Shown here: in pieces, positions 14,456 to 63,383 of the stretch
Layout of the letters: each line of letters begins with the position of its first letter
Numbering within the stretch: position 1 is the stretch's first letter
Assembly (NCBI GenBank): GCA_016218495.1
Contig: JACRDU010000162.1
Location: 1-64,000, forward strand
Direction of reading: 5' to 3'
Length of the DNA: 64,000 bases
Source of the DNA: Elusimicrobiota bacterium
Lineage (GTDB): Bacteria > Elusimicrobiota > Elusimicrobia > UBA1565
Notes under the pieces: model-generated
Told to the model about the DNA's origin: nothing
The model's input: the letters and a program-made list of their open reading frames with translations, nothing else
Databases searched by the model: none
Program-made: the position numbers and the translations under genes

Positions 14456-14459
14456 CGCC

Positions 14460-33203: not shown

Positions 33204-33206
33204 TGG

Positions 33207-33665
33207 CTACTTGGACTGCTGCCTCGACATGAACTTCCGGCGCTCGGCCAGCTTCTTCATCTCCTCGGCGAAGGCCGGGTTCTTCTTGAGCATGAAGGAG
33301 AAGTCGGCCGAGAGGAGGACGAACAGGCGCGTCGCCTCCTCGCAGACCACGCTGGCGTTGCGCGGGTCGCGCGACAGCAGGGCCATCTCGCCGAAGAAGT
33401 CCCCCGGCCCGAGGCGGGCCACGGTCTTGGAGAGGAAGATGTACCTCTTGAGCCGCACGGAGACCGCCCCGTCGTAGACGATGTAGAAGGCGTCCCCCGG
33501 TTCGCCCTGATGGAAGACCGTCTCCCCGGGCTTATAACGGCAGAGCATGATGTACTTCACTATCTGCTCGAGCTCCCCGACGTTGAGCGGCGCGAAGAAC
33601 TCGACCTTCCTCATCGCCCGGGCCAGGTGGCCGTAGTCCGCGTCCGACATCGCTACCTTCTCCAT
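33207..33665 (-). CDS. stand-alone cyclic-nucleotide-binding (cNMP/CAP-effector) domain protein, no DNA-binding domain
   Basis: 152 aa. cNMP-binding beta-roll motifs GETVFHQGEPGDAFYIVYDGAVSV and FGEMALLSRDPRNASVV. The stop is 3 nt before the giant-gene ATG. Confidence 0.8.
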   Translation of the reverse strand: MEKVAMSDADYGHLARAMRKVEFFAPLNVGELEQIVKYIMLCRYKPGETVFHQGEPGDAFYIVYDGAVSVRLKRYIFLSKTVARLGPGDFFGEMALLSRDPRNASVVCEEATRLFVLLSADFSFMLKKNPAFAEEMKKLAERRKFMSRQQSK

Positions 33666-33674
33666 TTTCGCCTC

Positions 33675-36539: not shown

Positions 36540-37502
36540 TTAGAATTTCAGGAGGAGGGAGAAGCGGAAGGTGTTGCCGAGGTCGCCGTAGGGGACCCAG
36601 GCGAAGTCGAAGCCGGCGCGGTAGAACTGCACGCCGGCGCCCATCGTGAGGAGGTTCTGCCCGTCGTTGTCCATGCGGTGGGTGTTGACGCCGGCCCGCA
36701 GCGCGCCGGAGACGTTCGCCGTGAACGGGTGCAGGTACTCGACCCCGCTGCCCACGAACAGGTCGGTGTCGCGGTACTTTGTCACGTCCAACGAGGCCCG
36801 GACCCGCTTGGTCAGCTGGGTGCCGGAGCCGACGACGAAGCCGCGCGGGAGCGGGTCGGAGACTCCCGCGAAGGAGATCTCGCTGCCGATGTTCTTGACC
36901 ACGGCGGAGAGCCAGACCGGCCGCCCCCACACGCTGGGCAAGGTGAACAGGCCCCCGAAATCGGTGGCGAAGGCAGAGGCCGAGTAGCTGTCGATGGTCT
37001 CGTGGATGAGCTTGCCGGTGACGCCCAGGCTCAGCCGCGGAGACAGCCGGTAGGCGTAGGAGAGGTTGTAGGAGTAGTCCCCGGCCCCGAAGCTGCCGGT
37101 CGGCGAGCGCGTGTCGGCGGTGTGGCGCTCGATGTCGGAGATGGAGAGGTTGTAGATGGCCGCTCCGATGGCGTGCTTGGAGTGGTCGGCCTGGCGGCCC
37201 ATCGGGTAGACGAAGCCGGCGAACTCGTAGCTGATGCCCTGGAAGTGCTCGGCATGCGCCGCGGCCAGCTGGCTGGTCGACAGGCGGGTCATGGCCGCCG
37301 GGTTGTAGTACACCGCGTAGACGTCGTCGGCCAGAGCCGAATACGCCTCGCCCATCGCGCCGGCGCGGGAGCCCGCGCCGAGCTTGAGGAACTGGGCGGC
37401 GCTGGTGCCCGCGTTGGGGTTGATGGCCAGGGCCGGGCGCGCGGCGGCGCAGACGAGCCCGAGGGCCGCCAGCAGCGCGAAGAGTCGGACCCGGTTGGTC
37501 AC
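36540..37502 (-). CDS. FadL/PorV-like outer-membrane beta-barrel (module 2 partner of the 8,185-aa CTD protein)
   Basis: Signal MTNRVRLFALLAALGLVCAAARPALA. FadL hatch-type motif FLKLGAGSRAGAMGEAYSALADDVYAVYYNPAAM. C-terminal FRFSLLLKF. ATGA overlap with the giant-gene stop. Paralog of 21643..22587. Confidence 0.65.
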   Translation of the reverse strand: MTNRVRLFALLAALGLVCAAARPALAINPNAGTSAAQFLKLGAGSRAGAMGEAYSALADDVYAVYYNPAAMTRLSTSQLAAAHAEHFQGISYEFAGFVYPMGRQADHSKHAIGAAIYNLSISDIERHTADTRSPTGSFGAGDYSYNLSYAYRLSPRLSLGVTGKLIHETIDSYSASAFATDFGGLFTLPSVWGRPVWLSAVVKNIGSEISFAGVSDPLPRGFVVGSGTQLTKRVRASLDVTKYRDTDLFVGSGVEYLHPFTANVSGALRAGVNTHRMDNDGQNLLTMGAGVQFYRAGFDFAWVPYGDLGNTFRFSLLLKF

Positions 37503-40500
37503 AGGCCGCTCCCCTTGATGACGGCCATCTTGTGGTAGACGCTCTGGCCGTTCACCGTGTACTCCAGGATGTATACGCCCGAGGCCACCGGCCGGCCCGC
37601 GGCGTTCGTGCAGTCCCAGAAATCGTAGTTGTGCGTGCCGCCGTTGGCGGTCTTGTGGAACTCGTCGACCAGCTCGCCGGCGACGTTGTAGATGCGGAAG
37701 CGGTGGTCGAGCGGCGTGACGGCGCCGGGCGCGGCGTAGTGGATGACGGTGCCGACGCCGGTCAGCGCGCCCGCCGCGCAGGAGCCCTCGGCCACGTTGC
37801 AGTTGATGGTGCGGCTGCGGCAGTCGAACGGGTTCGGGAAGTTGAAGGCGATGGGCTTCTCGTCGCGGAAGGTGGCCGCCCCGACCAGCCCCGGCGCCCC
37901 GTTGAGGACGACGAAGGTGGAGAAGTGGTCGACCGAGACCGTGATGGTCTTGTTGATGGTGTCGATGCGCTTGTTGTTGGTCTCCTCGACCGGCGCCTGG
38001 CCGTTCGAGATGCTCCAGATCTTCAAAGCGGAGACGGAGGTCGTCGTCGCCAGCGAGGTGTCGTAGGGCAAGGTCAGGTCGACGGGCTTGGTGAGCTGGG
38101 CCCGGATGCCCAGCGGCAGGAAGACCTCGTAGAAGGAGCTGAACGGGTTGGCCTTGAAGGCGTTGTTGGTCGCGGTGGAAGCCGCCAGCGGGCCGTAGGC
38201 CGAGGCCTGCAGGGCCTGGATGCGGGCCGGCACGTAGCCGAGCTGGGCCATGGACAGCTGGGCCGCCTGGTTGGCGTCGAGCGAGCCCTGGACGCCGACC
38301 TGGACCTTGTTCTTGTCGCCCAGCTTGCCCTGGCAGTTATAGTTCGTGTCCCCGGCCGAGCAGCCCTCGAAGGAGCCGGGGGCGAAGTTCAGGCCGAACT
38401 TCTCCGAGTCGCCCTGGCCCTCGACGCGCTCGGAGGTCTGCAGGTTGACCTGGCCGCCCTGCGAGTTGTTGACCGGCTTGTTGGCCTGGGAGGTGATGAC
38501 GCGGTTCGAGCCGTTCTGCGACACCGCGGCGGCGAAGTCGAAGACCTTGAGCAGGGTGAAGTTCTCGCCCGTGGTCGGGTCGACGGTGGCCATGACGGCG
38601 TTGAGCTTGATGGAGAAGTTCTTCTCGGAGGCCGAGCCCGCCCGGTACACGACCGTGATTTCCTTGCGGTTGGACTCGATCTTCTTGTCCGAGCCGCCCA
38701 GCAGGGCGCCCTGGCCGTTCGGCGCGGTGTAGTTCGTCCCGTTGGAGGCGAAGCTCGAGACGCTGACGATGGTGTCGACGTCGTCGTCGGAGGCCAGGAG
38801 CTTGCGCAGCGGCTGCGAGCAGGCGATCTTGACCTGGAACTGCCCGTTGCCGAGCGCCTTCTCCCTGGAGTCCGCGTAGCAGTCCGGCGCCGTGCGGCTG
38901 TAGGTCAGGTTGACGGTCTTGGTCGTCGTGCTCTCGGCGGCCGAGAAGGATATCCCCTGGCCTTCCGCCGGGTAGACGACGTCGAGGTCGTCGCGGTGCG
39001 GCGGGAGGATGACCACGTTGTAGCTGACGCCCGGCTCGAAGCCGGAGATGGAGTAGCTGTTCACCGTGCGCGCCGTCTGGTCGATGGAGACCGAGCCGAT
39101 GATGAACTTGGAGAAGTCGCTGTTGGCGGCGGCCACGCCGCCGACCTCCTCGGTGCTGGGCGAGGTGCCGTTGGGCAGGAGGATGCGGCCCTGCAGCAGG
39201 CCGCCGCGGGCCAGGGTCAGGCCGGGGGCGCACAGGCCGACCACGGTGGTCGTCGAGATGCAGAAGCTGCCGGCATTGACGGTGACGGTGGCCGTGGCCA
39301 CCCCGAAGCCCAGGCTGACCGCGCGGATGGTGTAGCTGCCCACGGCGACGCCCGGGAAGCTGAAGCTGCCGTCGGAGAGAGTGTCCACCTCGGTGTCGCC
39401 CAGCGGGTTGTCCAGCGACACGACCCCGAGGGGCTGGAGGAAGACGGCCGCGGCAGGATAGCCCTGGTTCTCGCCGAACGGATAGGCGAGCGGGGACCCG
39501 TCGTCGGTCAGCACCTGGCCGGTCACGGACCCCAGCAGGGCGTTCAACTGGATGTTCAAAGGAGTGGTGGACACCGCCAGGCGGATGAGGTCGACCTGGG
39601 CGTAGCGTACGCCCGAAGCGGCCTGGTTGCCGTCGCGCGGCGCGACGGTGACGTCGTACTGCGGCGATACGAAGGTGGAGACCCAGAGGGTGAATTCGCC
39701 GTTGGCGTTGGAGAAGGTCTCCACCACCAGGGACACGTCGCCGTGCGAAGGCTTCGCCACCAGCTTGATGTTGCCCAGGGCCGTGGTGGTGGAGGCGGCG
39801 TCCACCAGAGTGCCCTTGATGGAGGTGCCCTGGTTCATCGACAGGGTACCGACGTCCTTGCGCTCGAAGGGCTGCAGGGACAGGCCGCCCAGCTCGACGG
39901 GCGAGTAGTTCTGCGACCCCTGGGCCAGGAAGGCCAGGTCCCACTTGTCCTGGAAGACCTTCAGGTCGTAGGGGGTGTCGGGGAAAAGCGGGCCGACCAG
40001 GAAGGTCCCGTCGGCGCGGATGGGGCGGGCGGAGACGCTGGAGGCCGCCTGGGCGAAGCCGCCCTCCACCCACGGGTTCGCCGTGGCGGTGATGCGCAGG
40101 TTCGGCGGCAGGACCTTGGCGTTGCGCTCGGTGAAGAGCTCGCCCGAGGCGGCGTCCTGGAGCTTGCCGGTCAGGTAGCCCGCCCGGCGCATGAGGACGT
40201 CCTGGCTGACCAGGTTCGCCGCCAGGCCGCCCGGTGACTGCGCCGAATCGGGGAAGCGGATGGGGCGGCCCAGGTACTTGGGCTCGGAGGCCGCGTCCTC
40301 GACGCTCAGGGTGTAGAATTCGCCGGCCGGCAGGCCTTCCAGGCGATAGCTGGTGGAGGCGGCCGTTACGCCCGCGGCCGAGTTGCCCAAGGCCACGGTG
40401 GTGGAGCGGACCACCTCGAGGCGGCGGTTGCGCAGGGTCAGACGCAGCGTCCGGAAGTCCTGGACACCGGCGGCCAGGGTCAGGACTCCGGTCACCGAGT

Positions 40501-55500: not shown

Positions 55501-58500
55501 GCTTGAGCAGGAAGTTCCCGCCGTCCGCGGTCGCCGAGGTCAGCCCGACCGTGACGATGTTGGCCGAGTCGGCCGAGATGGCGCCCATGCCCTGGCCGCC
55601 CACTACGGGGAAGGTCGAAGACACGCCGTCATAGGCCAGGGTGTTGGAGAAGCGCCGGACATAGGCCTCGCCGGCCCCCTCGGAGCGCGCGAAGAGGAAC
55701 AGCTTGCCCGAGCCGTAGGCGATGCGGGCCGAGTCGGGATCGCCGACCAAAGAGGAGATGTCCAGGGTGCCGACCACCTGCAGCCCGGTGTCGAACTTGA
55801 CCAGTCCGCTGGGGCTCATGTGCATCGAGCTGACCGCTACGAAGAGGTTGCCGACGGCGTCGACGGCGGCCCACTTGGCGTGCGTCTGCCAGGAGCCGGC
55901 GACGGTATAGGTGGTCCGGGAGATCTCGGCCAGGCTCGGGGAGTACTTGACGATGATGGTTGGATACTCGCCGCCCAGGAAGAGCGGCCCGCCGTCGACC
56001 AACGCGTAGACGTTCCCGCCGCGGGCTACGGCCATCGTCCCGCCGGCGCCCACCCCGAGGGTGGCGGAGGACTGGAAGACCAGGTTCGCGTCGTAGCGGT
56101 GGATGCCGGTGTCGATGGTGGGCTCGCCGCGGTTGGCGCCGACATAGAGCGAGCCGCCGTCAAAGGCGATGGTGTGGCTGGTGGTCCCCAGGGGGTACAT
56201 CGTGGCTGAAGAGAGCACGACGCCGGCAGAGTTCATCTTAAGGATGACAGCCTCGCCCGCCGGGGGCCACACCGCGCCGGTGGTCGAATAGGCGATGGCG
56301 TAGAGGTCGCCGGAGACGGGGTCGGCGGTCAGGGCCACGACGGCTTCGTTGCGGTTGTCGGTGGTGTTGACGAACTTGCCGGACGGCAGGGCGCCGGAAT
56401 ATGTGAAGACGGGAGCTGGCGGTGCCGCAGGACCGCCTGCCCCCAAGGGCAGGAGGAGGCGGGTGGTTCGGATGTCGTTGTTGGCCCCGTTCGAGGACTG
56501 TCCGGTCAGGAAGAGCGCACCGGTCTGTCCCACGACGAAGGCGAAGGCGGTATCGACGTTGCCGGCCCCGTCGGCCGTGGCCGAGGAGATCATGGCCAGG
56601 GTGGCGGGGTTGATCCGCATCGCCAGGTAATCCGCCGGCGAACCGGCCGAACCGGCCAAGAGCAGGTCGCCGGTGGCGTCGAAGGCCAGGTCGCTGGCGA
56701 TTTCAAAGCCCGCGCCTCCCAAGGCCGCCGTGCTGACGAGGGTCGGAGTGGGGACCGAGTAGCGCGCCAGGATGATGTCGCCGCCGTTGGCAACAGTGGA
56801 CCCGGTCACATAGAGTTCGGTGCCGGACGGCGCAAGAGCGATGCCCCCATCCTGTTGCCCAGCGGGGAGGGTGTCCTCAGTGATGGCGGAATTGAGGTTC
56901 TCATCAACCTGTGCCACGAGGACTCTGGCTGGGGTGTCATTAATCCGGCCGGTGGTATAGATGTTCCCAGTCACAGGGTCGGCCGCGACCCCGTTGGCAA
57001 AATAATCAAGCGAGGAGGCCCAACCCGTGAATCCGACGTTCGCCAACCCGGTGGAAATACGGAACAAGTCGATTTCGAAGAAGGACGCGGCAAAGTGATG
57101 CCCGGCGAAATAGAGGTAGCCGTTGGGGTGAGAGGTGACCGCTTCGAAGTAGTCCAGAGTCCCGCTGTCCATCGTGGTGGAGGAAATCATCGCCAGGGTG
57201 ATGGAGGACACGCGCATCAGCAGGAAGTCGCTGTTGCCCGAGGAATTGATATCCACCGAGCCGCCGACGAAGAGGTCGCCGTTGGCATGCTGGGCCACGG
57301 CACGGAAGCTGTCGTTATAGGGCGACAGGCCGTAAGTGGCCGACGACACCAGGTTCCCGCCCACATCATAATGGAGGATCAGGGCGTCATAGGAGCCCGC
57401 CGGGCTCGAGGTATGGCCGACGACGAACACATCGCCCGTGTTGGTGTCCTTGACGATGTCGTAGGCTCGGTCCTCGTCAGCGCCGGAGGCCAAGGCGCCG
57501 CCCGGCACGGGGAAGGTGCCGGAGAAGGACATCGGAGCCGGCGCGCCGCCGCCGGAGGCCAGGGTGCGCAGCATCACCACGCCGTCGTCGTGGGTCGAGT
57601 TGCGGCCCGTCCCGCCCAGCGCCACGCCGTCGCCCGAGTAGAGGGCGACGCCGGTCAAGCTGTCGGCCCCGCCGAACCCGGCGTCGAAGACCCCGGAGGA
57701 GAGCTGGTTGAAGCTATGGTCGAACCGGAAGGCGAGGAAGCTCCCCCCGTCGGCCGTGCTCGATGTCAACCCGACGACGAGCGAGGTGGCGTCGGCGGTG
57801 ATGGAGGTCTCCGGCGAGGCGCCGGGGACATAGATGTTCGTGCTGACGCCCAGGGAGGCCAAAGTCGAGGAATCGTAGCGATGGAGGATGGCATGGGCCG
57901 GCGCGGCCGAGTCGCCGGAGGCGACGAAGACGCTGCCGCCGCCGTAGGCCAAGCGCGGCTGACTGCCCAGAGTGGTGGTCAGGCTCACGGAGGAGAGTTG
58001 GACCAGGCTCGAGTCGAAGCGGTAGAGGGCGCCCTGGATGGGAGGCGTCACGGTCATAGACGTGACGGCGACATAGATGTCGCCCGGCACGTTAGCGACG
58101 ATGTCGTCGCCGTTGAGGTGGTCGGAGCCGAACGGGGCCAAGGTCGAACGCGCCACCTCGTTGAGGGTGACGGCGTCGTACTTGATGACCTTCGCGCCCT
58201 TATCGCTCAAGCCGCCGTCGTTGATGGTATACAGGAAGCCGTTCTTTGCCACGGCGCGGGTGATGTTGCCGACCGCCGCGGCGTCGACGCTCACCGAGGA
58301 GAGCCGCACCAGGTTCGCGTCGTAGCGCGCGATGCGCCGGGTCGTGGGCTCCTCCTTCTCGGAGACGAAGACGAAACCGTTCTCCCAGGCCAGGGCGTCG
58401 CCGCTCCGGTCGCCCTGGAGCGCGGCGGAGGCCAGCACTACGCCGGACGGGGAAATCTTCAGGAGGAAGCTGTCGCCGGACGCGGCGTACCACTGGGGCG

Positions 58501-61500
58501 CGCTCGTCGAGCGTGCCACCGTGTAGACGTTCCCGGTCGTGGAATCGACGGCCAGGCCGAACAGGGCCTCGTTGCGGTTGGCTGTGGAATTAACGAACGC
58601 CCCGGCGGGGAGGGAGCCGGAATAGGTCAGGACGGCCGGCCCGCCCGGGCCGCCGCCGCCGGACAGGGCCAGGCGGGTCGTGCGGGCGACGCAGTTGTTC
58701 CCACCGCCGCCCGTGCAGGACGTGCCGGTGGCCCAGACATCGCCCGAAGCGGGCACATGCAGGGCGACCCCGGACCCGCCAGCGCCGGCCGCGTTGAAGG
58801 CGGCGGTGGACAGCAGGTTCAGGCCGACGTCGTAGCGAGCGGCGCTGTACTGCGAACCAACCGGGGTGCTCCCCGAAGTGACGATGTAGATGTCGCCCTC
58901 GGGGCCGGCCTGGATCTGGCCGGGGCCGATCTGCAGGCGGGTCGGGGCGAAGGTGGAGGAGAACCCGGTATAGTTCAGGCTGGAGTCGAACTTCCTGATA
59001 TAGAGCTCAGAGCCGTCCTCGCTGCCGACCAGGGCGAACACGAACCCGCCCGCGTAGGCCAGCTCGATGCTGCCGCCGTTGCCGATGATGGGCAGGAGAT
59101 TCGTCGACACATCGACGTCCACCAGGGGCGAGGCGCCGTCGAAGGTCGGCCCGTACTTGAGCAGGTGCAAGGTCGAGGTGGCGTTGTTCACCACCATATA
59201 GGTGTTGCCGGAGGGGTCGATGGTGATGCCGTTGCCGTTCGTAAAACCGGGCAAAGTGGTATAGGAGGCTGTGGCCAGGGCCACCAGGCTCGGGCTGAAC
59301 TTGATGAGGGAGCTGCCGTCGTTGTGGACGTAGATGTTCGTCCCATCCGTCGTCATGCGGGTGGCGTTGGTGTAGGCCGGCCCCCCGGCGGCGGGAGACT
59401 GGTAGGACACCTGTCCCTGCTGGGCCAGGAACTTGTTGAACTTGACGATGCCCACGTCGCTCGTGGTGCTGGAGGTCGGCTTTACCTTGTAGCTGGCGTA
59501 GACGTTGAAGGCGCTGTCCACCGCGAAGGCATCCGCCCCGGCGGCGTTGCCCGGCAGGGTCGTCGAAGAAAGGAGGTTGCCGGAGGCGTCGAGGCGGGCG
59601 ATGGAGTCGACCTCGGGATAGAGCTCGCCTCCCAGGTTGGCCGTCGTCGATATGAACGCCACATAGACGAAGGGGCCGGAGACCGTCACCGTGTCGACGA
59701 AAATCTGTCGGCCGATGATGTTGTGGCCGGTGGCCGTGATGGCGTTGCCGTTCGCCGAGTTGTAGGCCCCGCCAAAGGTGAAGGACGGGGCGCCGGCAGG
59801 CGCGCCCTCGATGCCTTCGGCGCCGGCCACGACGCTGCCCGTGCCGTCGAGCTGCACGACGGTGGGAGAGCCGTTGTTGACCGCGTAGAACGTGCCGCCC
59901 ATGTCGGTGCCGGAATAGAGGACCGATTCGCTGAGCAGGTTCTTCGGGTAGCCGGCGGTGAGGTTGAGGGAGAGGTCGTAGTCCCAATACGCCGAATAAC
60001 CCAGATTCTGGGAGGGCTCCTGGCCGCCGATGACGGCGACGTTGGCGGCGCCGCGCAGGATGATGTCACCCACCTTCTCGTGGGTGGCCGGGCTGGTGGA
60101 ATGCCAGTACTTCTCGGCGACGGTGCTGCCGTCCATGTCGAACTTGAGGACGGCCAGGTCCATGTTGCCGGACCCGTTCATGAACATGGCGCCGGCGAAG
60201 AGGTTCGTGCCGTTCGCGGTGAGGGTGGGATTCCCCTCGCTGCTGGGCATGAAGCCGGGGAGGGTGTTGGCCAAGGTCAGGGAGCCGGCGGCGTATTTCC
60301 ACAGCGCCAGGTCGATGTAGTTCGGCGCGCCGCCCACCGGCTGGCTGGACATGCCGAGCATCCAGAAATACTGAGGGGCCCCCGGCGCCGTGCCGGTGGA
60401 CGCGATGCTCGAGACGAAGTCGAAGGAAGAGCTAGGGGCGTTGGCGTAAGTCGGGGCGAACAGGGTGTCCGAGACGGTGGCGTACTCCCAGATCGCGGTG
60501 GCGAACGAGCCGGCGGAGAGTTCGACGGCGCCGGCCAACCTCAGTTCGCCGTTGGCGGTAGAAGTGGCGGCCATCACGAAGTCCGTCAGGCCGAAGCCCG
60601 CGTCGAGCGTCCGGCTGGAGACGAAGGTCATCGGACCCGGGTTGAACTTCCAGACCGCGGCGTCGTTGCCCAAAGTCGTCGGACCGGAAGCCATCCCGAC
60701 CATGTAGAGGCTGCCGCCCGTGTAGACCAGGGGCAGGTTGTCGTCGACGCCGGCGCCGCTGATGGTAATCGACGAAACAAGGGTGTTGAGCGGCGTCATC
60801 TTGCGGATGTCGACGGTGCCGTCGCCGTTGGCGACCGACATATAGAGGTAGGTGCCGTCGTTGACCAGGGAGGTCTGGCCGCCCTGGCCGCCGCCGCCAT
60901 CGGGCAAGGCCGCGTAATCGACCATCTTGGACGCGAAATTCTGCGGCCCGGCCGTCTGGTTGACCGAGGTCATGTAAATCTGGGTGCTGGCGCGCACGAC
61001 CATCGAACTCGAGGGGTCCGCATCCTTGCGCAGAGAAGAAGCCAGGTCGGGCGTGAAGGCCTTGAGGCCAGGGAACGCCCCGCTGCCCATGTAGTAGACG
61101 TCGTAGTTGTTAGGGTCGACGGCGACGCTGCGCTCGTCGCTCGACGAGACGTTGCCGCTAGAAGCGAAGGTCGCCGTGGCGACGGCCACCCCGTTCTGGA
61201 TGCGGAAGATGTAGTTGATGGATTGACCCGCGACCGAGGCGAAGGCCACAGCGTAAGCGTCGCCGGAACCGGCGAGGGCCACAGCGGCACCGCCCTCCAG
61301 CGTGTCCGGGGGGGTGATGTCGAAGCTACCCGCCGGCGTCAGGTTCGGGGCGGTGAGGAGCTCCACCCGGAGGGTCCCGCCGTCGCTGCGCACGCCGACG
61401 ACGAGGACGCCGTTGCCCGGGAACCATCCTAGCACGCGGTCCTGCTTGCCCGAGACATAGGAACCCGTCATGGCCCGGGTCGAGATCAGATTCAGGGCCG

Positions 61501-62056
61501 GCGTATTGAATTCGTTTATGAGCTGCTGGCCGCCGACGATGCTGGCGGTGATTATGCTCGTGCCGGAGGAGATGACCGCATGGAAGGAGGCTCCCGACGC
61601 GTCCTGGTAGGACGCTTGGAAGGCCAAGGTAATCCTGTCGTAGACCCGCATGTGGCGTTGCCCGTTGGCCGAGCCGACGACGAAGACGCTGCCGAGGGCG
61701 GGGTCGACGAAGACATCCTCGGCGACGTCGACGGAACTGCCGCCGCTGTCGAAGGTGGCCGAGGATAGCACGTTGCCGGACGGGTCATACTTGACGATGA
61801 GCCAGTCGGTCCCGCCGGGACCGAGATTGACGATCTTGCCGACGACGAAGACATTGCCGTTGGCGAGGTCGACGGAAATCCCCTGAGCGCGGTCGTTGTT
61901 GCCGCCGGTATCGTACGTGGCGCTGGTGAACGAGGTCGAGTAGTTGCCGGCGAACCCTGCGGCGCCTGCGGTGACGGGTAGGAAGAGGACAGACGCGACG
62001 ACCGTCCGCAATAACGCGGCGGTCGACCCTCGGCGGAGTCTCGGCGTTTCTCTCAC
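37499..62056 (-). CDS. giant (8,185 aa, 24.6 kb) secreted cell-surface protein: multiple SBBP-type beta-propellers, NHL-like propeller, about 14+ Ca-binding-loop beta-sandwich repeats, 2 FN3, 2 PPC domains, many Ig/CarboxypepD_reg-like domains, T9SS-type CTD
   Basis: Single uninterrupted ORF, GTG start, signal peptide (TAALLRTVVASVLFLPVTAGAAG). SBBP motifs (GNVFVVG...DWLIVKYDPSGNVLSS) recur through aa 40-2900. The C-terminus NFPNPFD...GVYILEY...HKMAVIKGSGL is Por_Secre_tail-like. Confidence 0.85.
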   Translation of the reverse strand: MRETPRLRRGSTAALLRTVVASVLFLPVTAGAAGFAGNYSTSFTSATYDTGGNNDRAQGISVDLANGNVFVVGKIVNLGPGGTDWLIVKYDPSGNVLSSATFDSGGSSVDVAEDVFVDPALGSVFVVGSANGQRHMRVYDRITLAFQASYQDASGASFHAVISSGTSIITASIVGGQQLINEFNTPALNLISTRAMTGSYVSGKQDRVLGWFPGNGVLVVGVRSDGGTLRVELLTAPNLTPAGSFDITPPDTLEGGAAVALAGSGDAYAVAFASVAGQSINYIFRIQNGVAVATATFASSGNVSSSDERSVAVDPNNYDVYYMGSGAFPGLKAFTPDLASSLRKDADPSSSMVVRASTQIYMTSVNQTAGPQNFASKMVDYAALPDGGGGQGGQTSLVNDGTYLYMSVANGDGTVDIRKMTPLNTLVSSITISGAGVDDNLPLVYTGGSLYMVGMASGPTTLGNDAAVWKFNPGPMTFVSSRTLDAGFGLTDFVMAATSTANGELRLAGAVELSAGSFATAIWEYATVSDTLFAPTYANAPSSSFDFVSSIASTGTAPGAPQYFWMLGMSSQPVGGAPNYIDLALWKYAAGSLTLANTLPGFMPSSEGNPTLTANGTNLFAGAMFMNGSGNMDLAVLKFDMDGSTVAEKYWHSTSPATHEKVGDIILRGAANVAVIGGQEPSQNLGYSAYWDYDLSLNLTAGYPKNLLSESVLYSGTDMGGTFYAVNNGSPTVVQLDGTGSVVAGAEGIEGAPAGAPSFTFGGAYNSANGNAITATGHNIIGRQIFVDTVTVSGPFVYVAFISTTANLGGELYPEVDSIARLDASGNLLSSTTLPGNAAGADAFAVDSAFNVYASYKVKPTSSTTSDVGIVKFNKFLAQQGQVSYQSPAAGGPAYTNATRMTTDGTNIYVHNDGSSLIKFSPSLVALATASYTTLPGFTNGNGITIDPSGNTYMVVNNATSTLHLLKYGPTFDGASPLVDVDVSTNLLPIIGNGGSIELAYAGGFVFALVGSEDGSELYIRKFDSSLNYTGFSSTFAPTRLQIGPGQIQAGPEGDIYIVTSGSTPVGSQYSAARYDVGLNLLSTAAFNAAGAGGSGVALHVPASGDVWATGTSCTGGGGNNCVARTTRLALSGGGGPGGPAVLTYSGSLPAGAFVNSTANRNEALFGLAVDSTTGNVYTVARSTSAPQWYAASGDSFLLKISPSGVVLASAALQGDRSGDALAWENGFVFVSEKEEPTTRRIARYDANLVRLSSVSVDAAAVGNITRAVAKNGFLYTINDGGLSDKGAKVIKYDAVTLNEVARSTLAPFGSDHLNGDDIVANVPGDIYVAVTSMTVTPPIQGALYRFDSSLVQLSSVSLTTTLGSQPRLAYGGGSVFVASGDSAAPAHAILHRYDSSTLASLGVSTNIYVPGASPETSITADATSLVVGLTSSTADGGSFLAFRFDHSFNQLSSGVFDAGFGGADSLTGVALYSGDGVALGGTGRNSTHDDGVVMLRTLASGGGAPAPMSFSGTFPVPGGALASGADEDRAYDIVKDTNTGDVFVVGHTSSPAGSYDALILHYDVGGNLVSSATYGLSPYNDSFRAVAQHANGDLFVGGSVDINSSGNSDFLLMRVSSITLAMISSTTMDSGTLDYFEAVTSHPNGYLYFAGHHFAASFFEIDLFRISTGLANVGFTGWASSLDYFANGVAADPVTGNIYTTGRINDTPARVLVAQVDENLNSAITEDTLPAGQQDGGIALAPSGTELYVTGSTVANGGDIILARYSVPTPTLVSTAALGGAGFEIASDLAFDATGDLLLAGSAGSPADYLAMRINPATLAMISSATADGAGNVDTAFAFVVGQTGALFLTGQSSNGANNDIRTTRLLLPLGAGGPAAPPAPVFTYSGALPSGKFVNTTDNRNEAVVALTADPVSGDLYAIAYSTTGAVWPPAGEAVILKMNSAGVVLSSATMYPLGTTSHTIAFDGGSLYVGANRGEPTIDTGIHRYDANLVFQSSATLGVGAGGTMAVARGGNVYALVDGGPLFLGGEYPTIIVKYSPSLAEISRTTYTVAGSWQTHAKWAAVDAVGNLFVAVSSMHMSPSGLVKFDTGLQVVGTLDISSLVGDPDSARIAYGSGKLFLFARSEGAGEAYVRRFSNTLAYDGVSSTFPVVGGQGMGAISADSANIVTVGLTSATADGGNFLLKRFDSNLVPFDTVLADAGFSGADAFMALLTSGPTGVYAAGAGYNTGHFDGVVKLQSLSAAPPAVVSTVSVSFAGTFSPGSRINNDVNGADIGHSLVIDSTGGFVYATIHSTSNASAGASPDQVTVVKYDLTGAFVASTTLLGSLSGDALAFENGSVFVAEKDEAGLRRMVKLGASLERLQTVTFNQNNIGNITRAASRAGFVYTVNDGGSISQGAKVVKLDTNLNEVARATFPISTQHVNGNNIVITPFGGEVFVSVSDGSNTVKLVKYDQNLNALAQADVSALFPAVVGQMDLAFSNGVLLAGSYDATGYNYRLRKFDPNLNYSGASSTLSVQSAPGAGLKSGPDGLFYLAITSYSADGGDYALKVFDPDLIEKASTSFDAGFAGFDQAIGLAVLDSSNVFVTGTGFNGANGYDAVTFVKNLSDAGSGTGGAPQGDGYWGVADMAGRLWTSYAAEDSLKRFDSPAPPVSRTAPAQQVLGFPQGVRNPRALSVDTGGNLWVAVSTAFGGPVNQLVRYAGEAGPGTVSTTTSSSLSTMLSDVWATAFRSDTGDLWVANRTGGGASVVNYLRDGASSLGAPTYSAGGASQFTSFAQLPGAAGLGFDSGNNLWVSVPALGEIRRYPEVAGSISGTPDVTITAVPAPFAFAFDFDGNMFVSEVTTDAAPGSGSVWRFENLGTLPSPFIDTTPQWVDGGKMLSGLAFVGGQLWGADFRNNQLVTVQTVPPTPPASYGSVEGTLGYDYGLTGAPDYKIVFSTSAFDIDNSAPATLMVSTGALGAFSASGLIAPNTYYVQALWDRNSSGEPDNFDPFARHSASFYGPLTPVVVLPDQTVTGLDLHLFDMVQVSGTVTNNSVQTGTLRVQHWYGDPASAGTRIEYPRSADNSLSTYTVFVATISNLYLQAFVDSNWNAAKDSGEDFATVGPIDLSGVSPNTTFVQNITIAAGTPGQVHLAAVSVAPQNISSNGEAAFLKLGLWSEGGNAQLSALRVSLLGDAPAQAVVARVWRDSNSDGNLTVGLDEFIGDEFFSAGVPPTANVVFWSTQTVTASTASYFVGLGIFGVPAGKSAGVGVESASAFTFPNGSMAAGQPLPAASDLAVSQFSLAARPFDMGYPVPQAGASPSGGFDTGLFINVGQTVEINASGFWNTGASGVSGPEGLGSTGGLGGALPIGALVGRIGGSNWFLVGSSKTFVSTQSGPLALAMNDTDYQDNSNGLAVDFHIVPSSVTQTWVGGSAFGAGADIPNNWASGQPPQPGESIVFNGANDCDWNLFQLNVGAWTMTPGYTGTVRLRGSNGPDDFNAIQVSSHAVIAGGTLDMGRNKEFRVQGGLFVTNGATFDLGRDNGRLFVGQAGAVVSGGGRFVYAPDQSAFSQVMPAGFNTVPFTVVEGTVNVTGNGFLRMERSNVTITSAANLLAFHNVGFDEWEQNATAAFTLARSSSQAMTFRGLQFYGQYTTNVNAAGVPVGSNVTMLDSMGPNRGTPKENDPNNVLFWNPDGGGAGNIAGSIINEAVSGPGAGFTRVRASTQPFFDTFAPQGGLQFTASVSGLSGTYNLNNLDAPATYYLFAWHDANNDFYPNGVETRGAFGPANKGFLRSDPVFVAPSDNLSGKDITVRDWGEVNVDFQNGSQQFGPMLVGAVSLLADGVSTNAVEALSYSQGPGFFNLSVPATSLVLIGWVDVNNNRELDSFEASGSSAVITLPQSGTYPGTVSISAGGGTAPPGGTVGASVVIPHGGLIGDNGPQTMAKLTLTGASSQASMNGLQVDIEGGPMQSYQLAFWIDNDGNGQLDQYCGGTGPCDNPVGFAYVTPPVSSAVVNFYQTLFLDPGQPRTAFLVFQPQGLQSGHQGLAPLSLTVAASNYFLMGAGSMDADPIYPIVSSATIGWAVFAGTEGDPFGGGGYYTCLSVAPGQQVVVQAAGSWNFKGQNTGPEGLSNTESAPNLLRGARTGALLVSANGGWVAVGTGTTITAGQNGGLGIHLSANDVPGDYFNNYGEMRVGLTVTGSTTSAVAGSINYLGALSGSNLIVNLKQDCQYAPFGCNPTVSTAVVSLAGAGSYPYVLHVPFGGFFTVEAYAQADPNQQSGKLPMFQAPIGSTAAVSFTVYSGLGQISGSLAYSGLMDFGQFNIGVTTSPDFEHEVNFVGGLKTPTAGPFTVTGLPIPANYYLVAFRDGNYNDQPDGPEPLGGYNLAPSQIVMSQLSSLLSPIAVSSAAGANIGTVTLGDMGGIQGRVFFDQAVNNKRFIIVAGHGVPGTASFAPEARDFRFVPSLPAGGSFDFFMGLLKPATDYRLVGFADLNFNGQFEANEPFTVNDAFLSVPSGGFANAEMRVGTPQPPAAVGSFGLGAFSDTQLTFQWSQVQGATGYLLLDASSAVVVALPGSASTYIEAASAASTSAIRGIQAVNNQGAGGIRAVFGIPAAAAVTPGAPTFSNVGVSSFTVDWTANGNGSLAYYQLESATVAAGPFQAVQYSPALTRAAIGLAPATTYYFQVKAQSPNGGFSAPSSVQSVVTLPSVDPSIAGLVSYTGTQTGDVYIQAFTSSAPFAGQAASVRMPKSSQQPYYLALGAGSYFVRAFVDVNANGTREAGEDQGTLGGAVAVVASPVIGQNFSVVADTVTPAAPAGLLATLSLGRVALTWNAPTLNQNGTPLADLAGYRVQRTTAGTANFATLSNQTVFGVSGIVAAPAFTDLSPIGGVDNIYRVLAIDWGGNVGGASGALAVRPAVGGTVSGSISTFTATSQGAYRVRLSTSPRREDPFLAESTLSDFSFTGLNDGVYYLRGFRDVNADNSQDAATEPSGTHGGIVGPFPLNIINGNTVANRPVTICDRAALRLGLDATGQFQAGDCPALDKGPGFYTDLYTFRAGGGAAGSIGTGSSVDISLVTPGFDSELIVLGPSGQVVARDNTPGNPHVTFLANEPGIYVVEPTSFFSGQTGFYDLLMNVYGGFTGQIAGVTSYSGSKTGPIRLQLFDRPDADAFPFHVQDQFGTGSFTIGNLKDGAFYLRAFRDENFNFAKDPGEPSGAYGFSESSPTAITVTGGVASVGSADIALADPSVGRIEGSILRQGSLAGTIRIEVGRRACSDCSDLNVVAFTTIPFAGSYALDFIAPATNYIVQAFVDQNANNRGDALEAKGSSTPVTVQANSTSTVNLLVRDPGTGTSGTSVIFGTVTYNGASTGTLFVAFATDQNFNYIPYYLTQSATGYFSRSGIQGGTTYYVGAFIDKNANGQIDEGGSLVEPSGDTGSQTFVPLSSSVGVAFTVVDPATGAVSGTVQYSGTVEGPLVVQAQRETMGGSHEGGFRSVSIPRTAGVSTYAYSAAFLSTGPFRMYAFVDSNGNQRSDFGEPFFRRDSLVNLGHLGQQVAGIDLVVFDAGAGGSGGAVGRIEGVLTYSGGQPGPIVVQAFTTNTFVGAPFRTATPGAQFGAISFAADNLPNGTYYLRAFKDPNGNQAYEPQFEAFGLVAGGSGLTVTADAPFSGGHVGTLSDAGQGGPVGSSSLSGTLEYRGSFSTGTFYLALFKDTDNDGSTDDLIRLSTLPFSAAPQSFTFSGLPDGQAWLRGFLDRNGNQQPDISEPFGLTDAQGISVFGPVTGLLMPVCDRVSLDLSPGAQNAGTINGGSCYSRESETLGSSQQLLTFHGTRGQILDATMEATEDNYLYLYDEHGQLVAQADEGGANQGDARLQVTLPGTGDYTLAATFYAPGIVGAYKIALQNSGGTPGSIAGEVIYSGSQGGKIVMALFNQENFDSEGAFVDGRDLPGPGAFSFQNLASETSYYMGAFVDVNFNNSPDQGEDFAVFSTAPPTATPIFLRAGQEVAGLSLVINPSTAAYGGLEGRVTGVISYTGSRQGVLRIEFWPDSSFQGRPLAVRSIPTGVGPYDLSVPGGQPYAVRAFLDVNNDFIPNPDEPMGVYSPNGQGAEPIYVPDNAARDGVDFEIRDPGFKLGQDGVSGEGFVNINSSQAAAGSAQVFISSFVVGPSGIGAGGAVAFGLPFGWTPPQSDSSMSPGFTTVTLSPAGPAVSTQPAPGGAPGIIVRVGGTPLAAGSTVQFLYNAAVPCFTGPSQFFFGSASTQTAPPAPLFSGNPIVDVTLGAAAAVHSAEPFIGLIQGATSQRLLLEAVDLCGNRTPVASVANVVLRAKRFSYQTAAFVDEPGLRISSSIAGVFDSTAVVTFAAGTSSATYRLRAATAGDLAVEIASNLLAPGTTGYAGVFALAVDPLTGVRVSTQPNPSVAQTTVTIRPDGNPLSPNLAFINFNIADQSLFWTVSIASTPYKADAAPNPVAFFSGSGQPARGQIAWDGRDYAGLRVGQGVYYVRIEAGGISNDSLRITVQSAALSLKVFDSGVTPNLPLSGVNIEYFGQFGGGTLLTDAQGAASLNGLSAGGYRLNITKDGYLVGRASVTVNADSTVRSTAPFNSQVELSTASFQSSTAPVRVLMSRAPSLIVVPNIPVTSTQAFTLWGELQISNASGTFSRNGPMRLEAGTTTFDDGGQYDNSVNAFVTKTVLRFQVGSDTYTVRARLEGFEDVSQSVFVAGSGETRLTLPVFSRRGAFTGTVALPNGSNTTGAFVSVSAVPISTETRIEGGFGGVELPVGVASDTYRVDGLKPGSYRLTANTQGYKAVFIDSATILSGVDTVVNFSSFPASNTSVLTATLSVTGDTSLFPALEPGGPSVRIHLNAWAPNTPNQAYRSVDIPVSATLSSVAVQLTGLEPGIKYQVFAGIESRGNTEFEVPGGFSREVTLSTTTGQGDVAFSFEAASGVVSGTILIPNGNTDFGNVTLFGETIAAVRPERVGKRFEEVATALDGWSTTASTGTFLLTGNNTETVDVTFVYKTTGRSVRKRVSIVNGSTTTVFVDLTDQTFAISGAVLNQISNTNFNTNPKLVANAGHLPVKGRTGADVPVDPATVDLGDVLTSTNSLARVVAIRQEFGVGTSTSFNPATDRVGYLTSAGTYTIRNVPPGVYLVRTADIRSRMDAAGTACTTCAVVVPRLAQIVAVGTASVQASTFTLTDGYSVTGVLTLAAGVQDFRTLRLTLRNRRLEVVRSTTVALGNSAAGVTAASTSYRLEGLPAGEFYTLSVEDAASEPKYLGRPIRFPDSAQSPGGLAANLVSQDVLMRRAGYLTGKLQDAASGELFTERNAKVLPPNLRITATANPWVEGGFAQAASSVSARPIRADGTFLVGPLFPDTPYDLKVFQDKWDLAFLAQGSQNYSPVELGGLSLQPFERKDVGTLSMNQGTSIKGTLVDAASTTTALGNIKLVAKPSHGDVSLVVETFSNANGEFTLWVSTFVSPQYDVTVAPRDGNQAASGVRYAQVDLIRLAVSTTPLNIQLNALLGSVTGQVLTDDGSPLAYPFGENQGYPAAAVFLQPLGVVSLDNPLGDTEVDTLSDGSFSFPGVAVGSYTIRAVSLGFGVATATVTVNAGSFCISTTTVVGLCAPGLTLARGGLLQGRILLPNGTSPSTEEVGGVAAANSDFSKFIIGSVSIDQTARTVNSYSISGFEPGVSYNVVILPPHRDDLDVVYPAEGQGISFSAAESTTTKTVNLTYSRTAPDCYADSREKALGNGQFQVKIACSQPLRKLLASDDDVDTIVSVSSFASNGTNYTAPNGQGALLGGSDKKIESNRKEITVVYRAGSASEKNFSIKLNAVMATVDPTTGENFTLLKVFDFAAAVSQNGSNRVITSQANKPVNNSQGGQVNLQTSERVEGQGDSEKFGLNFAPGSFEGCSAGDTNYNCQGKLGDKNKVQVGVQGSLDANQAAQLSMAQLGYVPARIQALQASAYGPLAASTATNNAFKANPFSSFYEVFLPLGIRAQLTKPVDLTLPYDTSLATTTSVSALKIWSISNGQAPVEETNNKRIDTINKTITVSVDHFSTFVVLNGAPGLVGAATFRDEKPIAFNFPNPFDCRSRTINCNVAEGSCAAGALTGVGTVIHYAAPGAVTPLDHRFRIYNVAGELVDEFHKTANGGTHNYDFWDCTNAAGRPVASGVYILEYTVNGQSVYHKMAVIKGSGL

Positions 62057-62141: not shown

Positions 62142-63383
62142 CTAATAGTCGTAACTGAAGCCGAACAGGTAATTCGCCGTCGAGTACGTGTACCGATAAG
62201 TCTTCTCGTAAGTCATGTTCGAGTCGGTCCACAGGAAGTTCGCCTGCGCGAGCATCCGGAAATTCTTCGCGATGGGCACGCCGTAGCCGAGTTGGACGAG
62301 GTAGCGGTCCTGGGTCTGCGTGTCCGTCTGATAGCGCCCGTTGGGGTCCTGCACCAGGCGCCCGAGGTAGTTCTGGCGCGACCAGGAGAAGCCCAGCGTC
62401 GCCGTCGTCGGAGCTTCCTTGTCCCCCCACGACATCCCCGCGCTAGGGCCCGCCGACACCGACCAGGAGCTGTAGGCGTCCGGGATGAAGCGGGTCTGCC
62501 CGGCGTCGTAGGTGTTCTGGTTCGAGCCCGTGTAGTTGAAGCCGGTGTTGAAGCCCACCGAGAGCTTGGCCTTGCCCTTCAGCACGTCGCGCGGGTGGAC
62601 GATGGAAGCGGTCAGGGCGTTGGTGAAGTCCTGGCGGTTCTCGTTGACGAACTGCCCGGCCAGGTTCACCAGCGGCTGGTCGTGGAACTTCTGCCAGAGC
62701 AGGCGGTAGCCCAGGGTCACGGCCGCCACCGGCTTGTCGTAGGGCACGGGACGCGAAAGCGTAAAGGAGAGCTGCTGGTTCAAGGTGTCGAGGGTGCGCA
62801 CGCCGGCCGTCTCGCGGCCGAGGGCGTTGCCGGCCGGGTCCACCCCGGACTTGGATTCCAGGGACTTGAAGTTCGGGAAGCGCGTGTAGAAGAAATCGTA
62901 GCCCCAGCGGTAGGAGAAGGGTTCCTTGTAGACGTTCTCCGCCTCGAAGCCCAGGCCCACCGTCTGCGTGTCGAAGAGGCCCTTGCCCCAGGTCTCGTCC
63001 CGGGTCTCTTTGAGGAAGTCGAACTTGTAGGAGAGCGAAGGCTTGAGCTTCCAGTTGCTGCCCGCGATGCTGCGCAGGTAGCCGACCGAGAGCCGGTGCG
63101 ACATGCCCTGCGCGAACAGGGTCCCGGACCCGATGGGGTCGGAGACGCCCTTCGTGCCGCGGTAGGAGGCGCTATATAAGGGAAGGAGCAGGCGCCCCTC
63201 CCCCAGCTTCACCACCGGCGCGGCGCTCGCGGTCAGGTTGCCGTTCAACTTGGACTTGTCCCCCGAGAAGAAGTACTGCCCGCCCAAGGCCGTGACTCCG
63301 TAGACCGGAATGACCTCGACCGCCCTCAAAGGGGAGGTCATGAGAGCCGCGAAGGCCAGGGGAAGGAGGGGGCTGGTCTTCAC
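62142..63383 (-). CDS. outer-membrane beta-barrel protein, unknown family (paralog of 33675..34892)
   Basis: GTG start. Signal MKTSPLLPLAFAALMTSPLRA. C-terminal aromatic beta-barrel signature ...NYLFGFSYDY. Alternating hydrophobic patterns throughout. Confidence 0.65.
   Translation of the reverse strand: MKTSPLLPLAFAALMTSPLRAVEVIPVYGVTALGGQYFFSGDKSKLNGNLTASAAPVVKLGEGRLLLPLYSASYRGTKGVSDPIGSGTLFAQGMSHRLSVGYLRSIAGSNWKLKPSLSYKFDFLKETRDETWGKGLFDTQTVGLGFEAENVYKEPFSYRWGYDFFYTRFPNFKSLESKSGVDPAGNALGRETAGVRTLDTLNQQLSFTLSRPVPYDKPVAAVTLGYRLLWQKFHDQPLVNLAGQFVNENRQDFTNALTASIVHPRDVLKGKAKLSVGFNTGFNYTGSNQNTYDAGQTRFIPDAYSSWSVSAGPSAGMSWGDKEAPTTATLGFSWSRQNYLGRLVQDPNGRYQTDTQTQDRYLVQLGYGVPIAKNFRMLAQANFLWTDSNMTYEKTYRYTYSTANYLFGFSYDY

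Follow-up and report, generated by a model that had tools for sequence, protein, structure and literature searches.

How does a bacterium move a protein of megadalton size across its outer membrane and then hold it at the cell surface? Giant surface proteins are common in the candidate phyla, and their outer-membrane crossing and retention are mostly unexplained; Elusimicrobia are listed among the phyla rich in huge proteins (West-Roberts et al. preprint). The question is raised by a window of 64 kb, the whole stretch of DNA analysed here, from an Elusimicrobiota MAG. The ORF listing and its translation give a giant gene of 8,185 codons plus stop on the minus strand (37499..62056, GTG start), which going by accession numbering is probably MBI5598044.1. 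The giant is accompanied by a small set of partner genes, conserved and present in duplicate; two of these genes belong to families of no known function, and type IX secretion (T9SS) has not been described in the phylum. We propose, with a probability of roughly 0.6, that the giant is a Sec-exported megadalton cell-surface fibre, a C-terminally anchored adhesin docked on its own PorV-like barrel.

Coding status of the giant reading frame

The giant ORF is a real, constrained coding gene, as the first-pass annotation had held. Its translation has a single stop, the terminal one, and the GC content at codon positions 1/2/3 is 0.60/0.51/0.93, with a GC3 of 0.93 in the giant's frame only. At the stop frequency of ~0.02 calculated for random codons at ~69% GC, 8,185 open codons would arise by chance with a probability of ~1e-73. 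An independent Logan assembly, L003, has its genes in the same order, with an orthologue of 8,542 aa at ~84% DNA identity; between the two giants dN/dS is 0.24-0.27 (2,900 codons), versus 0.135 for the barrel neighbouring the giant. Collinear orthologues of 6,212-8,542 aa are found in independent assemblies from other samples.

It could be argued that high GC together with repeat collapse or expansion produced the open frame, making the giant an assembly artefact or a pseudogene; the source is a short-read MAG, and high GC does yield long shadow ORFs, here of up to 1,525 aa in the other frames of the region. This reading is very improbable and already contradicted: the high GC3 is confined to the giant's frame, dN/dS is ~0.25, the collinear orthologues were assembled independently, and the DNA repeats within the giant are only 30-68 nt long and 60-77% identical, with none longer or more alike. 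Misassembly is rejected on the same grounds. Tandem Repeats Finder returned nothing relevant for the giant region. At the protein level, BLAST of 200-aa fragments reveals internal repeats of 25-41% identity (self-BLAST of the whole protein returned the identity hit alone), which bears out the earlier view that the repeats are old and not visible in DNA.

The N-terminus, MRETPRLRRGSTAALLRTVVASVLFLPVTAGAAG, is conserved in L003 and reads by inspection as a Sec signal peptide (61958..62056, minus strand, aa 1-33) with an Arg-rich n-region, a hydrophobic core and an AGA/AG cleavage-like site. With either a GTG or a TTG-15 start, the giant had no exact match in the protein collection. The signal peptide and the extreme modular build had both been noticed from the translation, and both hold: propellers, β-sandwiches, lectin-like domains, stalk and C-terminal domain (CTD) were all matched, the majority of the domain assignments being marginal and several below threshold.

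Domain architecture from head to C-terminus

The head of the protein consists of seven tandem units of ~370 aa (54191..61957, minus strand, aa 34-2622), bounded by HMM iteration at aa 34-399, 397-760 (divergent), 760-1145, 1144-1511, 1510-1884, 1885-2254 and 2255-2622 and separated by G/P-rich linkers. Seven units of this period replace the three ~420-aa super-repeats described before; the RTTRL...TYSG stretch taken as the start of each belongs to a linker found twice only, at aa 1125 and 1863. The units are SBBP-type, as proposed: they pass Pfam SBBP PF06739 marginally (21.5 bits, cut-off 20.5), and the unit profile retrieves 34,881 relatives, among which seven of the ten scanned carry strong SBBP matches (36-244 bits) and two of those seven a Por_Secre_tail. 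Structure prediction of one repeat unit agrees. The AF2 model of aa 1144-1511, built on an alignment of the window's units and those of contig P0001, is a predicted 7-bladed β-propeller of 28 strands (7 blades x 4; pLDDT 83, pTM 0.86), whose best Foldseek match is the CylK propeller (TMq 0.74), with tetrathionate hydrolase and sialidases among the other top structural matches. The best matches include enzymes, and thus a catalytic role is possible. In its modelled fold and in what its profile retrieves, the head resembles proteins that combine SBBP with Por_Secre_tail (PF06739 and PF18962); unlike the scanned SBBP relatives, which are 626-1,075 aa long, the giant has a row of seven units topping a stalk of 5,500 aa. 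After the head comes an NHL/SMP-30-like region with the motif spacing of a six-blade propeller (53318..54190, minus strand, aa 2623-2913): six D..GNLWV-type motifs recur ~50 aa apart, Pfam NHL reaches 21.9 bits (cut-off 20), none of the repeats being significant by itself, and SGL stays at 14.8 against 26.3. An NHL-like propeller had been placed here from the translation, and the assignment probably stands for aa ~2620-2913.

The β-sandwich region (43790..53320, minus strand, aa 2913-6089) contains 16 copies of a ~83-aa DUF2141-like domain with other domains interspersed. These are the β-sandwich repeats noted earlier, with the period corrected from ~75 aa; our own HMM finds the 16 copies, their motif being YYL.AF.D.N.N...D..EP.G, and the Pfam model DUF2141 reaches 59 bits (cut-off 24.4). 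A PDB sequence search with the repeat gave nothing significant. A second-order duplication of ~770 aa relates aa 2913-3680 to aa 3680-4495 (27% identity, E 1e-16).

Two segments previously called LamG/lectin-like prove to be lectin-like and not LamG: LamG-family models gave no match at E <= 1 in either, and LamG domains are rejected, the segments aligning to LecA/PA-IL instead. Domain 1 (51839..52153, minus strand, aa 3302-3406) has a shortened loop, NDT--DYQDN, and domain 2 (49502..49837, minus strand, aa 4074-4185) keeps the LecA loop NDVPGxYxNN, which we take to be the Ca/galactose loop of LecA. PF07828 PA-IL scores 25.3 bits (cut-off 22.5) with a tile of 980 aa and 18.5 bits with a shorter stretch; in the PDB, LecA is matched over residues 12-116 of 121, with E 4e-7 for a two-copy profile and E 5e-6 for a single sequence. 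Both ~110-aa domains align across the fold of LecA, the galactophilic lectin of Pseudomonas aeruginosa; LecA is a 12-kDa tetramer, and here the domains form part of a much larger chain. Opposite H50 and Q53, presumably the galactose-contacting residues of LecA, the giant has T and A.

Two fibronectin type III domains were proposed earlier; one domain passes the threshold (47999..48244, minus strand, aa 4605-4686; Pfam fn3 PF00041 34-36 bits, cut-off 25), and a second candidate, at aa ~7229, falls short of the same cut-off with 19-20 bits. The two PPC domains do not reach family membership: PPC-like domain 1 (46682..47110, minus strand, aa 4983-5125, Cys pair 5005 and 5025) scores 19.5 bits with PF04151 and domain 2 (44381..44785, minus strand, aa 5758-5892, Cys pair 5774 and 5796) 18.6, both below the cut-off of 25.9. 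Alignment shows the two to be paralogous. Because both match PF04151 over most of the model length, a resemblance to PPC is plausible; a PDB sequence search with the PPC-like domain found no match.

The transthyretin-like stalk (37784..43789, minus strand, aa 6090-8091) extends for ~2,000 aa and contains at least five CarboxypepD_reg-type matches, reaching 34.8-35.9 bits against the cut-off of 32.3 at three sites and weaker elsewhere, in agreement with the domain type assigned to it before. Phmmer with CarboxypepD_reg and FN3 seeds recovered no further copies in the giant, the domains of the stalk having diverged too far. The stalk aligns collinearly with the last 2,000 aa of a second giant in the window (27% identity over 2,175 aa) and with the orthologues in L009 (44% identity) and L010 (38%).

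The last segment (37502..37783, minus strand, aa 8092-8185), ending in ...GVYILEYTVNGQSVYHKMAVIKGSGL, is a CTD of putative T9SS type-A/FlgD-Ig-like character, kept in the second giant and in the orthologues from L009 and L010. A Por_Secre_tail had been proposed at this C-terminus, and the models divide: TIGR04183 passes its cut-off of 23 with 26.7 bits on the isolated CTD (last ~95 aa) and 23.8 in a tile, whereas PF18962 gives 12.9-16.2 bits against 27; FlgD_ig reaches 18.4 against 27. In the PDB, the FlgD Ig domain matches the CTD with E 5e-4. Weak similarity extends to the C-terminal ends of the NCBIfam models for PorZ and PorU, at 20-29 bits against full-length cut-offs of 260-420. In this comparison each of the four CTDs tested matched.

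Partner genes and the route to the cell surface

Each giant is paired with its own outer-membrane barrels in a gene cluster conserved in the phylum. The order is FecR-like protein, ~16-strand barrel, giant and PorV/PorQ-family barrel, with two copies in the window, and the layout recurs in part in every related Elusimicrobiota contig examined. The taxon, the minus strand and this cassette are all absent from the first-pass annotation. The FecR-like protein of the giant's cassette is cut by the window end, leaving its C-terminal part (63391..63999, minus strand); its stop and the start of the next gene, which encodes the barrel, overlap. It is 60% identical to the FecR protein of L001 and 31% to the window's second copy; the full-length L003 copy has a FecR domain. 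Against 'retention_LapA' the FecR-like proteins score 21-22 bits, below the cut-off of 50. The barrel that follows (MBI5598045.1, 413 aa, 62142..63383, minus strand) lies 85 nt upstream of the giant, has ~16 strands and belongs to an uncharacterised family so far confined to Elusimicrobiota. PDB sequence searches with the FecR-like protein and with this barrel returned nothing significant; the barrel resembles CdiB at fold level only. Two-partner secretion (TpsA/TpsB) proper is not supported for this locus, as the giant has no TPS or haemagglutination-activity domain and the barrel neither a POTRA domain nor an Omp85/ShlB family match.

On the other side of the giant lies the PorV/PorQ-family outer-membrane barrel gene (MBI5598043.1, 36540..37502, minus strand), whose GTG start overlaps the stop of the giant (GTGA). 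Its product scores 163 bits with NF033709 PorV_fam (cut-off 90) and 34 with Pfam PorV PF19572 (cut-off 27). The equivalog cut-offs are unmet (PorQ 99 versus 220, PorV 72.5 versus 250), and on these profile scores it is a family member and not an orthologue of PorV or PorQ. The 4-nt overlap between CTD protein and PorV-like gene is found in four other contigs as well (L009-L012). The second cassette (21643..36385, minus strand) comprises a FecR-like gene (34889-36385), a barrel (33675-34892), a cNMP-binding protein (33207-33665), the second giant (22584-33203; 3,539 aa, same CTD) and a second PorV-like barrel (21643-22587) with an ATGA overlap to its giant. Scans for promoters and terminators, covering the stretch between the cassettes and that downstream of the second giant, found nothing.

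We propose the following mechanism. After export through the outer membrane, the CTD would stay bound to its cognate PorV/PorQ-type barrel, anchoring the giant by its C-terminus, on the model of PorZ/PorQ, PorU/PorV and SprB/SprF in Bacteroidota. The conserved stalk and the β-sandwich array would form a long spacer, roughly estimated at ~150-200 nm from about 50 small domains, and display outward the fast-evolving, copy-number-variable propeller head and the predicted Ca-dependent lectin domains, for which glycans, particles or other cells are putative ligands. The FecR-like protein and the 16-strand barrel may assist export or anchoring, which is the least supported step. Retention on PorV is drawn by analogy, since the canonical type-A CTD is cleaved and PorV is merely a shuttle there.

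Two systems of Bacteroidota bear on this scheme. In Flavobacterium johnsoniae, SprB (669 kDa, a T9SS type-B cargo) is co-expressed with SprF, a PorP-like barrel of the FadL family, and needs this adjacent barrel for secretion and anchoring (PMC9143113). The Elusimicrobiota locus shares with SprB/SprF a very large repetitive surface protein with a C-terminal sorting domain and an adjacent outer-membrane barrel (PMC9143113). Unlike SprB, the giant has a CTD of type A/FlgD-Ig-like character and not type B, comes from the phylum Elusimicrobiota, and carries SBBP propellers and LecA-like lectins; unlike SprF, its barrel is of the PorV/PorQ family, with 16 bits for the PorP/SprF model TIGR03519, and no gliding genes were seen in the window. 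In the attachment complex of Porphyromonas gingivalis, PorZ is reported to be held on the cell by PorQ, and PorU by PorV (PMC7463736). The giant is similar in having a PorV/PorQ-family barrel as putative partner and a CTD matching the PorZ and PorU ends; in contrast, it has no homology to these proteins outside the CTD, where the matches are weak. To our knowledge, no sortase or A-LPS pathway has been described for the locus of this giant.

The same CTD and barrel could instead mark a canonical T9SS type-A cargo. The genome would then encode a full T9SS in which PorV only carries the giant between SprA/Sov and a PorU-type sortase; the CTD would be cleaved off, the giant would be covalently linked to a lipopolysaccharide, and the adjacent PorV genes would be ordinary paralogues. 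The TIGR04183 and strong PorV_fam matches agree with this, as does the Por_Secre_tail on more distant SBBP relatives. We consider it unlikely, given that T9SS is described as limited to Bacteroidota or the FCB group (PMC7463736, PMC12398890) and that the literature searched contained no link between T9SS and Elusimicrobiota. The 64-kb window also contains no T9SS core gene (SprA/Sov, PorK/L/M/N, PorU or PorZ). Moreover, the two giants are followed by PorV paralogues of their own, joined to them by start-stop overlaps and 38% identical, an arrangement that points to cognate pairs and not to a common shuttle. The main comparative paper on groundwater Elusimicrobia makes no mention of secretion, adhesins, S-layer, pili, outer membrane or surface proteins. 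If the giant is merely an ordinary T9SS-type adhesin, it is mainly a well-annotated example from an under-studied phylum.

Export could also be T9SS-independent, with the FecR-like periplasmic protein and the ~16-strand barrel as a dedicated outer-membrane translocon, in spirit like two-partner secretion, and the PorV-like barrel as the final anchor; we regard such a route as quite improbable. It is a tentative and rather doubtful generalization that Elusimicrobiota possess a self-contained and widely conserved module of four genes through which surface proteins of megadalton size are exported and anchored. CTD-PorV docking may then work without, or predate, the canonical T9SS, and the FecR-like/barrel pair may be a new export or anchoring device. 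The set of partner genes makes a question testable, namely whether CTD-PorV docking is a stand-alone anchoring principle, older or broader than the T9SS of Bacteroidota.

Other giant proteins and the evolution of the head

Giant RTX adhesins such as LapA and MpIBP have a spacer of Ig-like or β-sandwich domains that bears sugar-binding modules towards its far end, and they are anchored on an outer-membrane protein; the anchoring is through an N-terminal retention module, and T1SS exports them via a C-terminal signal. The giant shares their design principle of spacer, ligand-binding end and outer-membrane anchor, but its polarity would be opposite, and no RTX repeats or T1SS genes were seen. Like the giants of Omnitrophota and other candidate phyla, it is encoded by a very long gene in uncultivated groundwater bacteria; unlike those giants (30,000-85,804 aa), it is 8,185 aa long and has one signal peptide and a CTD. 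Their size has been tied to predation and cell-wall degradation (title of the West-Roberts et al. preprint; PMC12057145), and no degradative domain was detected in the giant studied here. The earlier statement that it is among the largest bacterial proteins cannot be kept: more than 41,000 proteins in UniProtKB are longer than 5,000 aa (PMC11573180), the ~7,500 longest BV-BRC proteins all have at least 10,624 aa, and the longest on record has 85,804 aa (bioRxiv 10.1101/2023.11.21.568195).

A homologue search with aa 1-1200 in a word-indexed collection returned a single relative, P0001, and this search missed orthologues of >6,000 aa that are present in gene tables. The scan of genome contigs yielded the P0001 contig alone, and a metagenome scan found no relatives. 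P0001 and the giant are 43% identical over the first ~1,050 aa, and the adjacent barrels of the same pair 73%.

The first-pass annotation had further taken the divergence of the repeats as a sign of stability against recombination, and here the relatives disagree with it. At the linker RTTRLLLPLGAGGPAAPPAPVF (56405..56467, minus strand, aa ~1864-1884), a unit boundary, L003 inserts one whole unit of ~367 aa, seen in blastn as a gap from 9905 to 11062 in L003 against 56464 to 56408 in the window. Recent tandem duplication is rejected as the source of the extra unit, which is 30-35% identical to any other unit. The number of units and their positions also vary among P0001, L005, L006 and L009. 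Among the relatives of the giant, whole units are thus inserted or deleted in frame and the number of propellers varies; L009 and L010 stay collinear with the giant over the C-terminal 2,500-3,300 aa. The locus shows a mode of evolution in which the stalk and anchor are conserved and the propeller units of the head are gained and lost whole, in frame.

Reality and architecture of the 8,185-codon gene

The giant ORF (37499..62056, minus strand) runs for 8,185 codons from a GTG start to one terminal stop. Its GC at codon positions 1, 2 and 3 is 0.60, 0.51 and 0.93, a pattern as in the real genes of this 69% GC window, and the longest shadow ORFs in the other frames over the region reach 1,525 aa. 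Random codons at the window composition are calculated to give about 0.02 stops per codon; thus, an open run of this length cannot be due to chance. Repeat collapse during assembly is unlikely, since direct repeats within the giant's DNA are only 30-68 nt long at 60-77% identity and no relevant tandem array was found in it. The neighbours of the giant exactly match genes of an Elusimicrobiota MAG (NCBI; locus tags HY928_183xx): exact-sequence look-up returned MBI5598043.1 for the PorV gene after it and MBI5598045.1 for the barrel upstream, so the giant itself is presumably MBI5598044.1. The same gene order is present in a close relative from another run, L003 (Logan assembly SRR22388162_141374, 50,229 bp), whose DNA is ~84% identical to the window and whose giant orthologue has 8,542 aa; further assemblies carry orthologues of 6,212, 6,826, 7,520, 7,724 and 8,257 aa. 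Between the giant and L003, dN/dS is 0.24-0.27 over 2,900 alignable N-terminal codons, which indicates purifying selection, and that of the neighbouring barrel is 0.135. Codon-position GC, the open-run odds, dN/dS and the independent assemblies together confirm the first-pass annotation's view that the gene is real, and its anatomy of the protein was largely right.

Pfam and NCBIfam matches on tiles of the giant were mostly weak, so profiles were built from its own sequence instead. By these profiles, aa 34-2622 form seven tandem units with a period of ~370 aa, the second of them divergent, and not the three ~420-aa super-repeats initially described. An AlphaFold2 model of the unit at 1144-1511, made with an alignment of ten paralogous units, predicts a 7-bladed propeller of 28 strands (pLDDT 83, pTM 0.86), to which the closest PDB structure is the CylK propeller (TMq 0.74). 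Searched against a library of 1.84 billion proteins, the unit profile retrieves 34,881 at E <= 1e-3; seven of the ten relatives scanned are strong SBBP proteins (36-244 bits), two of these seven with a Por_Secre_tail. This means that the units are divergent SBBP propellers, which bears out the original assignment. The adjoining region, aa 2623-2913, has six D..GNLWV-type blade motifs and narrowly reaches the NHL threshold (21.9 bits vs 20).

The middle of the protein, aa 2913-6089, is built from a DUF2141-like 83-aa β-sandwich in 16 copies (motif YYL.AF.D.N.N...D..EP.G), with a second-order duplication of ~770 aa. This array also holds one clear FN3 domain (aa 4605-4686), a paralogous pair of PPC-like domains, which have Cys pairs and score under the Pfam threshold, and two lectin-like domains of ~110 aa each. 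The latter had been read as LamG; a two-copy profile instead aligns with LecA across its whole fold (E 4e-7), making them LecA/PA-IL-like, and copy 2 keeps the NDVPGxYxNN loop. CarboxypepD_reg-type matches occur at five or more places in the stalk (aa 6090-8091). A probable C-terminal sorting domain (CTD) of 94 residues closes the protein; it passes TIGR04183 (26.7 bits vs 23) and also matches the PorZ and PorU models at their CTD ends.

A variable head on a conserved base

The L003 orthologue has one additional unit, and its site coincides precisely with the RTTRL...TYSG linker near window aa 1864. It shares no more than 30-35% identity with any other unit, which rules out a fresh duplication and points to an old module that was acquired or lost in frame. 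The repeats are ancient, as had been proposed. P0001, a related protein found with aa 1-1200 of the giant, has extra units ahead of its unit 3 orthologue, the related contig L005 has one or two units, and no propeller unit was found in the first 1,492 aa of the large protein (3,633 aa) of L004. In L009 (JGI Ga0376277_0000313; gene 1-10004, 7,520 aa), the β-sandwich region itself contains an SBBP-type unit, aa 4603-4989 of the whole protein, or residues 416-806 when counted within its last 3,333 aa; thus, units also move within the protein, besides varying at the head. These whole-unit differences contradict, at the module level, the suggested stability against recombination. The C-terminal 2,500-3,300 aa are collinear with the relatives L009 and L010 at 38-44% identity, ending in an identical ...IKGSGL, and the giant is 43% identical to P0001 over the first ~1,050 aa, compared with 73% for the adjacent barrel of the same pair. 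Taken together, these data argue for a variable head on a conserved base.

A duplicated cassette and its possible role

The giant belongs to a minus-strand array of overlapping or nearly abutting genes: a FecR-like gene truncated by the window end, a 413-aa barrel, the giant, and a PorV/PorQ-family barrel (PorV_fam 163 bits) whose GTG start overlaps the giant's stop. A second set comes next, with a FecR-like gene, a barrel, a small cNMP-binding protein, a 3,539-aa protein (giant2; 22584-33203, minus; MBI5598039.1, with a signal peptide) and a second PorV paralogue (21643-22587, minus; MBI5598038.1), which is 38% identical to the first and whose ATG overlaps the giant2 stop (ATGA). Cassette paralogues share 30-38% identity, and the two giants are homologous over their last ~2,000 aa (27% over 2,175 aa), with aligning CTDs. 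The 4-nt overlap of a CTD-protein gene with a PorV-like gene recurs in L009, L010, L011 and L012. Other contigs share the orders rpsU-dnaG-rpoD, FecR-like, barrel, giant, and giant, PorV with a 4-nt overlap, FecR-like, barrel, cNMP-binding protein, second giant; in the window and on another contig, the distal end runs into PGM and enolase. This recurring layout indicates that the locus is conserved at least across much of the phylum.

We infer a mechanism by analogy with Bacteroidota, where PorV and PorQ hold PorU and PorZ on the surface (PMC7463736) and where the 669-kDa SprB depends on SprF, the FadL-type barrel next to it, both for secretion and for anchoring (PMC9143113). Each giant would leave the cytoplasm by Sec and then cross the outer membrane by a putative route, its CTD staying docked on the PorV-like barrel whose gene directly follows its own. 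The stalk and β-sandwich array might then project the lectin domains and propeller head off the cell, the giant acting as an adhesin. The 16-strand barrel may contribute to export or anchoring, as may the FecR-like protein.

A giant modular adhesin is an already known kind of protein, and the proposed rank among the largest bacterial proteins does not hold: with 8,185 aa the protein is very large, yet no exception, as none of the ~7,500 longest BV-BRC proteins is shorter than 10,624 aa and ORFs of up to 85,804 aa are reported (bioRxiv 10.1101/2023.11.21.568195). In UniProtKB, upwards of 41,000 proteins exceed 5,000 aa, with Elusimicrobia among the phyla rich in them (PMC11573180). What stands above the ordinary is a conserved, duplicated cassette that joins a cognate PorV-type barrel to two partners that are uncharacterised, and its presence in a phylum with no described type IX secretion. 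That system is described for Bacteroidota/FCB only; our literature search returned no paper linking it to Elusimicrobiota, and a comparative genomics paper on groundwater Elusimicrobia has none of the terms checked for secretion, adhesins or surface structures.

Minor features of the locus

The N-terminus of giant2 is Gly-rich and GGxGGxG-like, with a Gly share of 23% over the first 500 aa. No family matches the middle of giant2, and the stalk and CTD at its C-terminal end are homologues of the larger giant's. Three genomes (window 33207-33665, minus; L009 14146-14601; L011 14927-15382) conserve the 152-aa cNMP-binding protein in the position after the barrel gene and before the second giant, and L010 has a Peptidase_S74 protein in its place. 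Together with a protein carrying an adenylate/guanylate cyclase domain and an HD_5 (HD-GYP-type) domain (window 1115-2836, minus), this gene hints at nucleotide signalling near the locus. In L004 (CP096137.1, a 3.8-Mb Elusimicrobiota chromosome), three extra genes at 11237-16768 (528, 871 and 107 aa), with no Pfam matches, separate the barrel gene from the 3,633-aa DUF2141/CarboxypepD_reg protein. Convergent with the cassette is a third FecR-domain protein (window 20279-21646, plus; FecR 67 bits), adjoined by a PDZ and right-handed β-helix protein (window 18759-20552, plus); with the starts as chosen, neither has an exact match in the protein collection. The open frame of enolase (window 11420-13120, minus) runs 128 codons upstream of the conserved ATG, an ORF-listing artefact of high GC, as the database protein MBI5598029.1 starts at that ATG.
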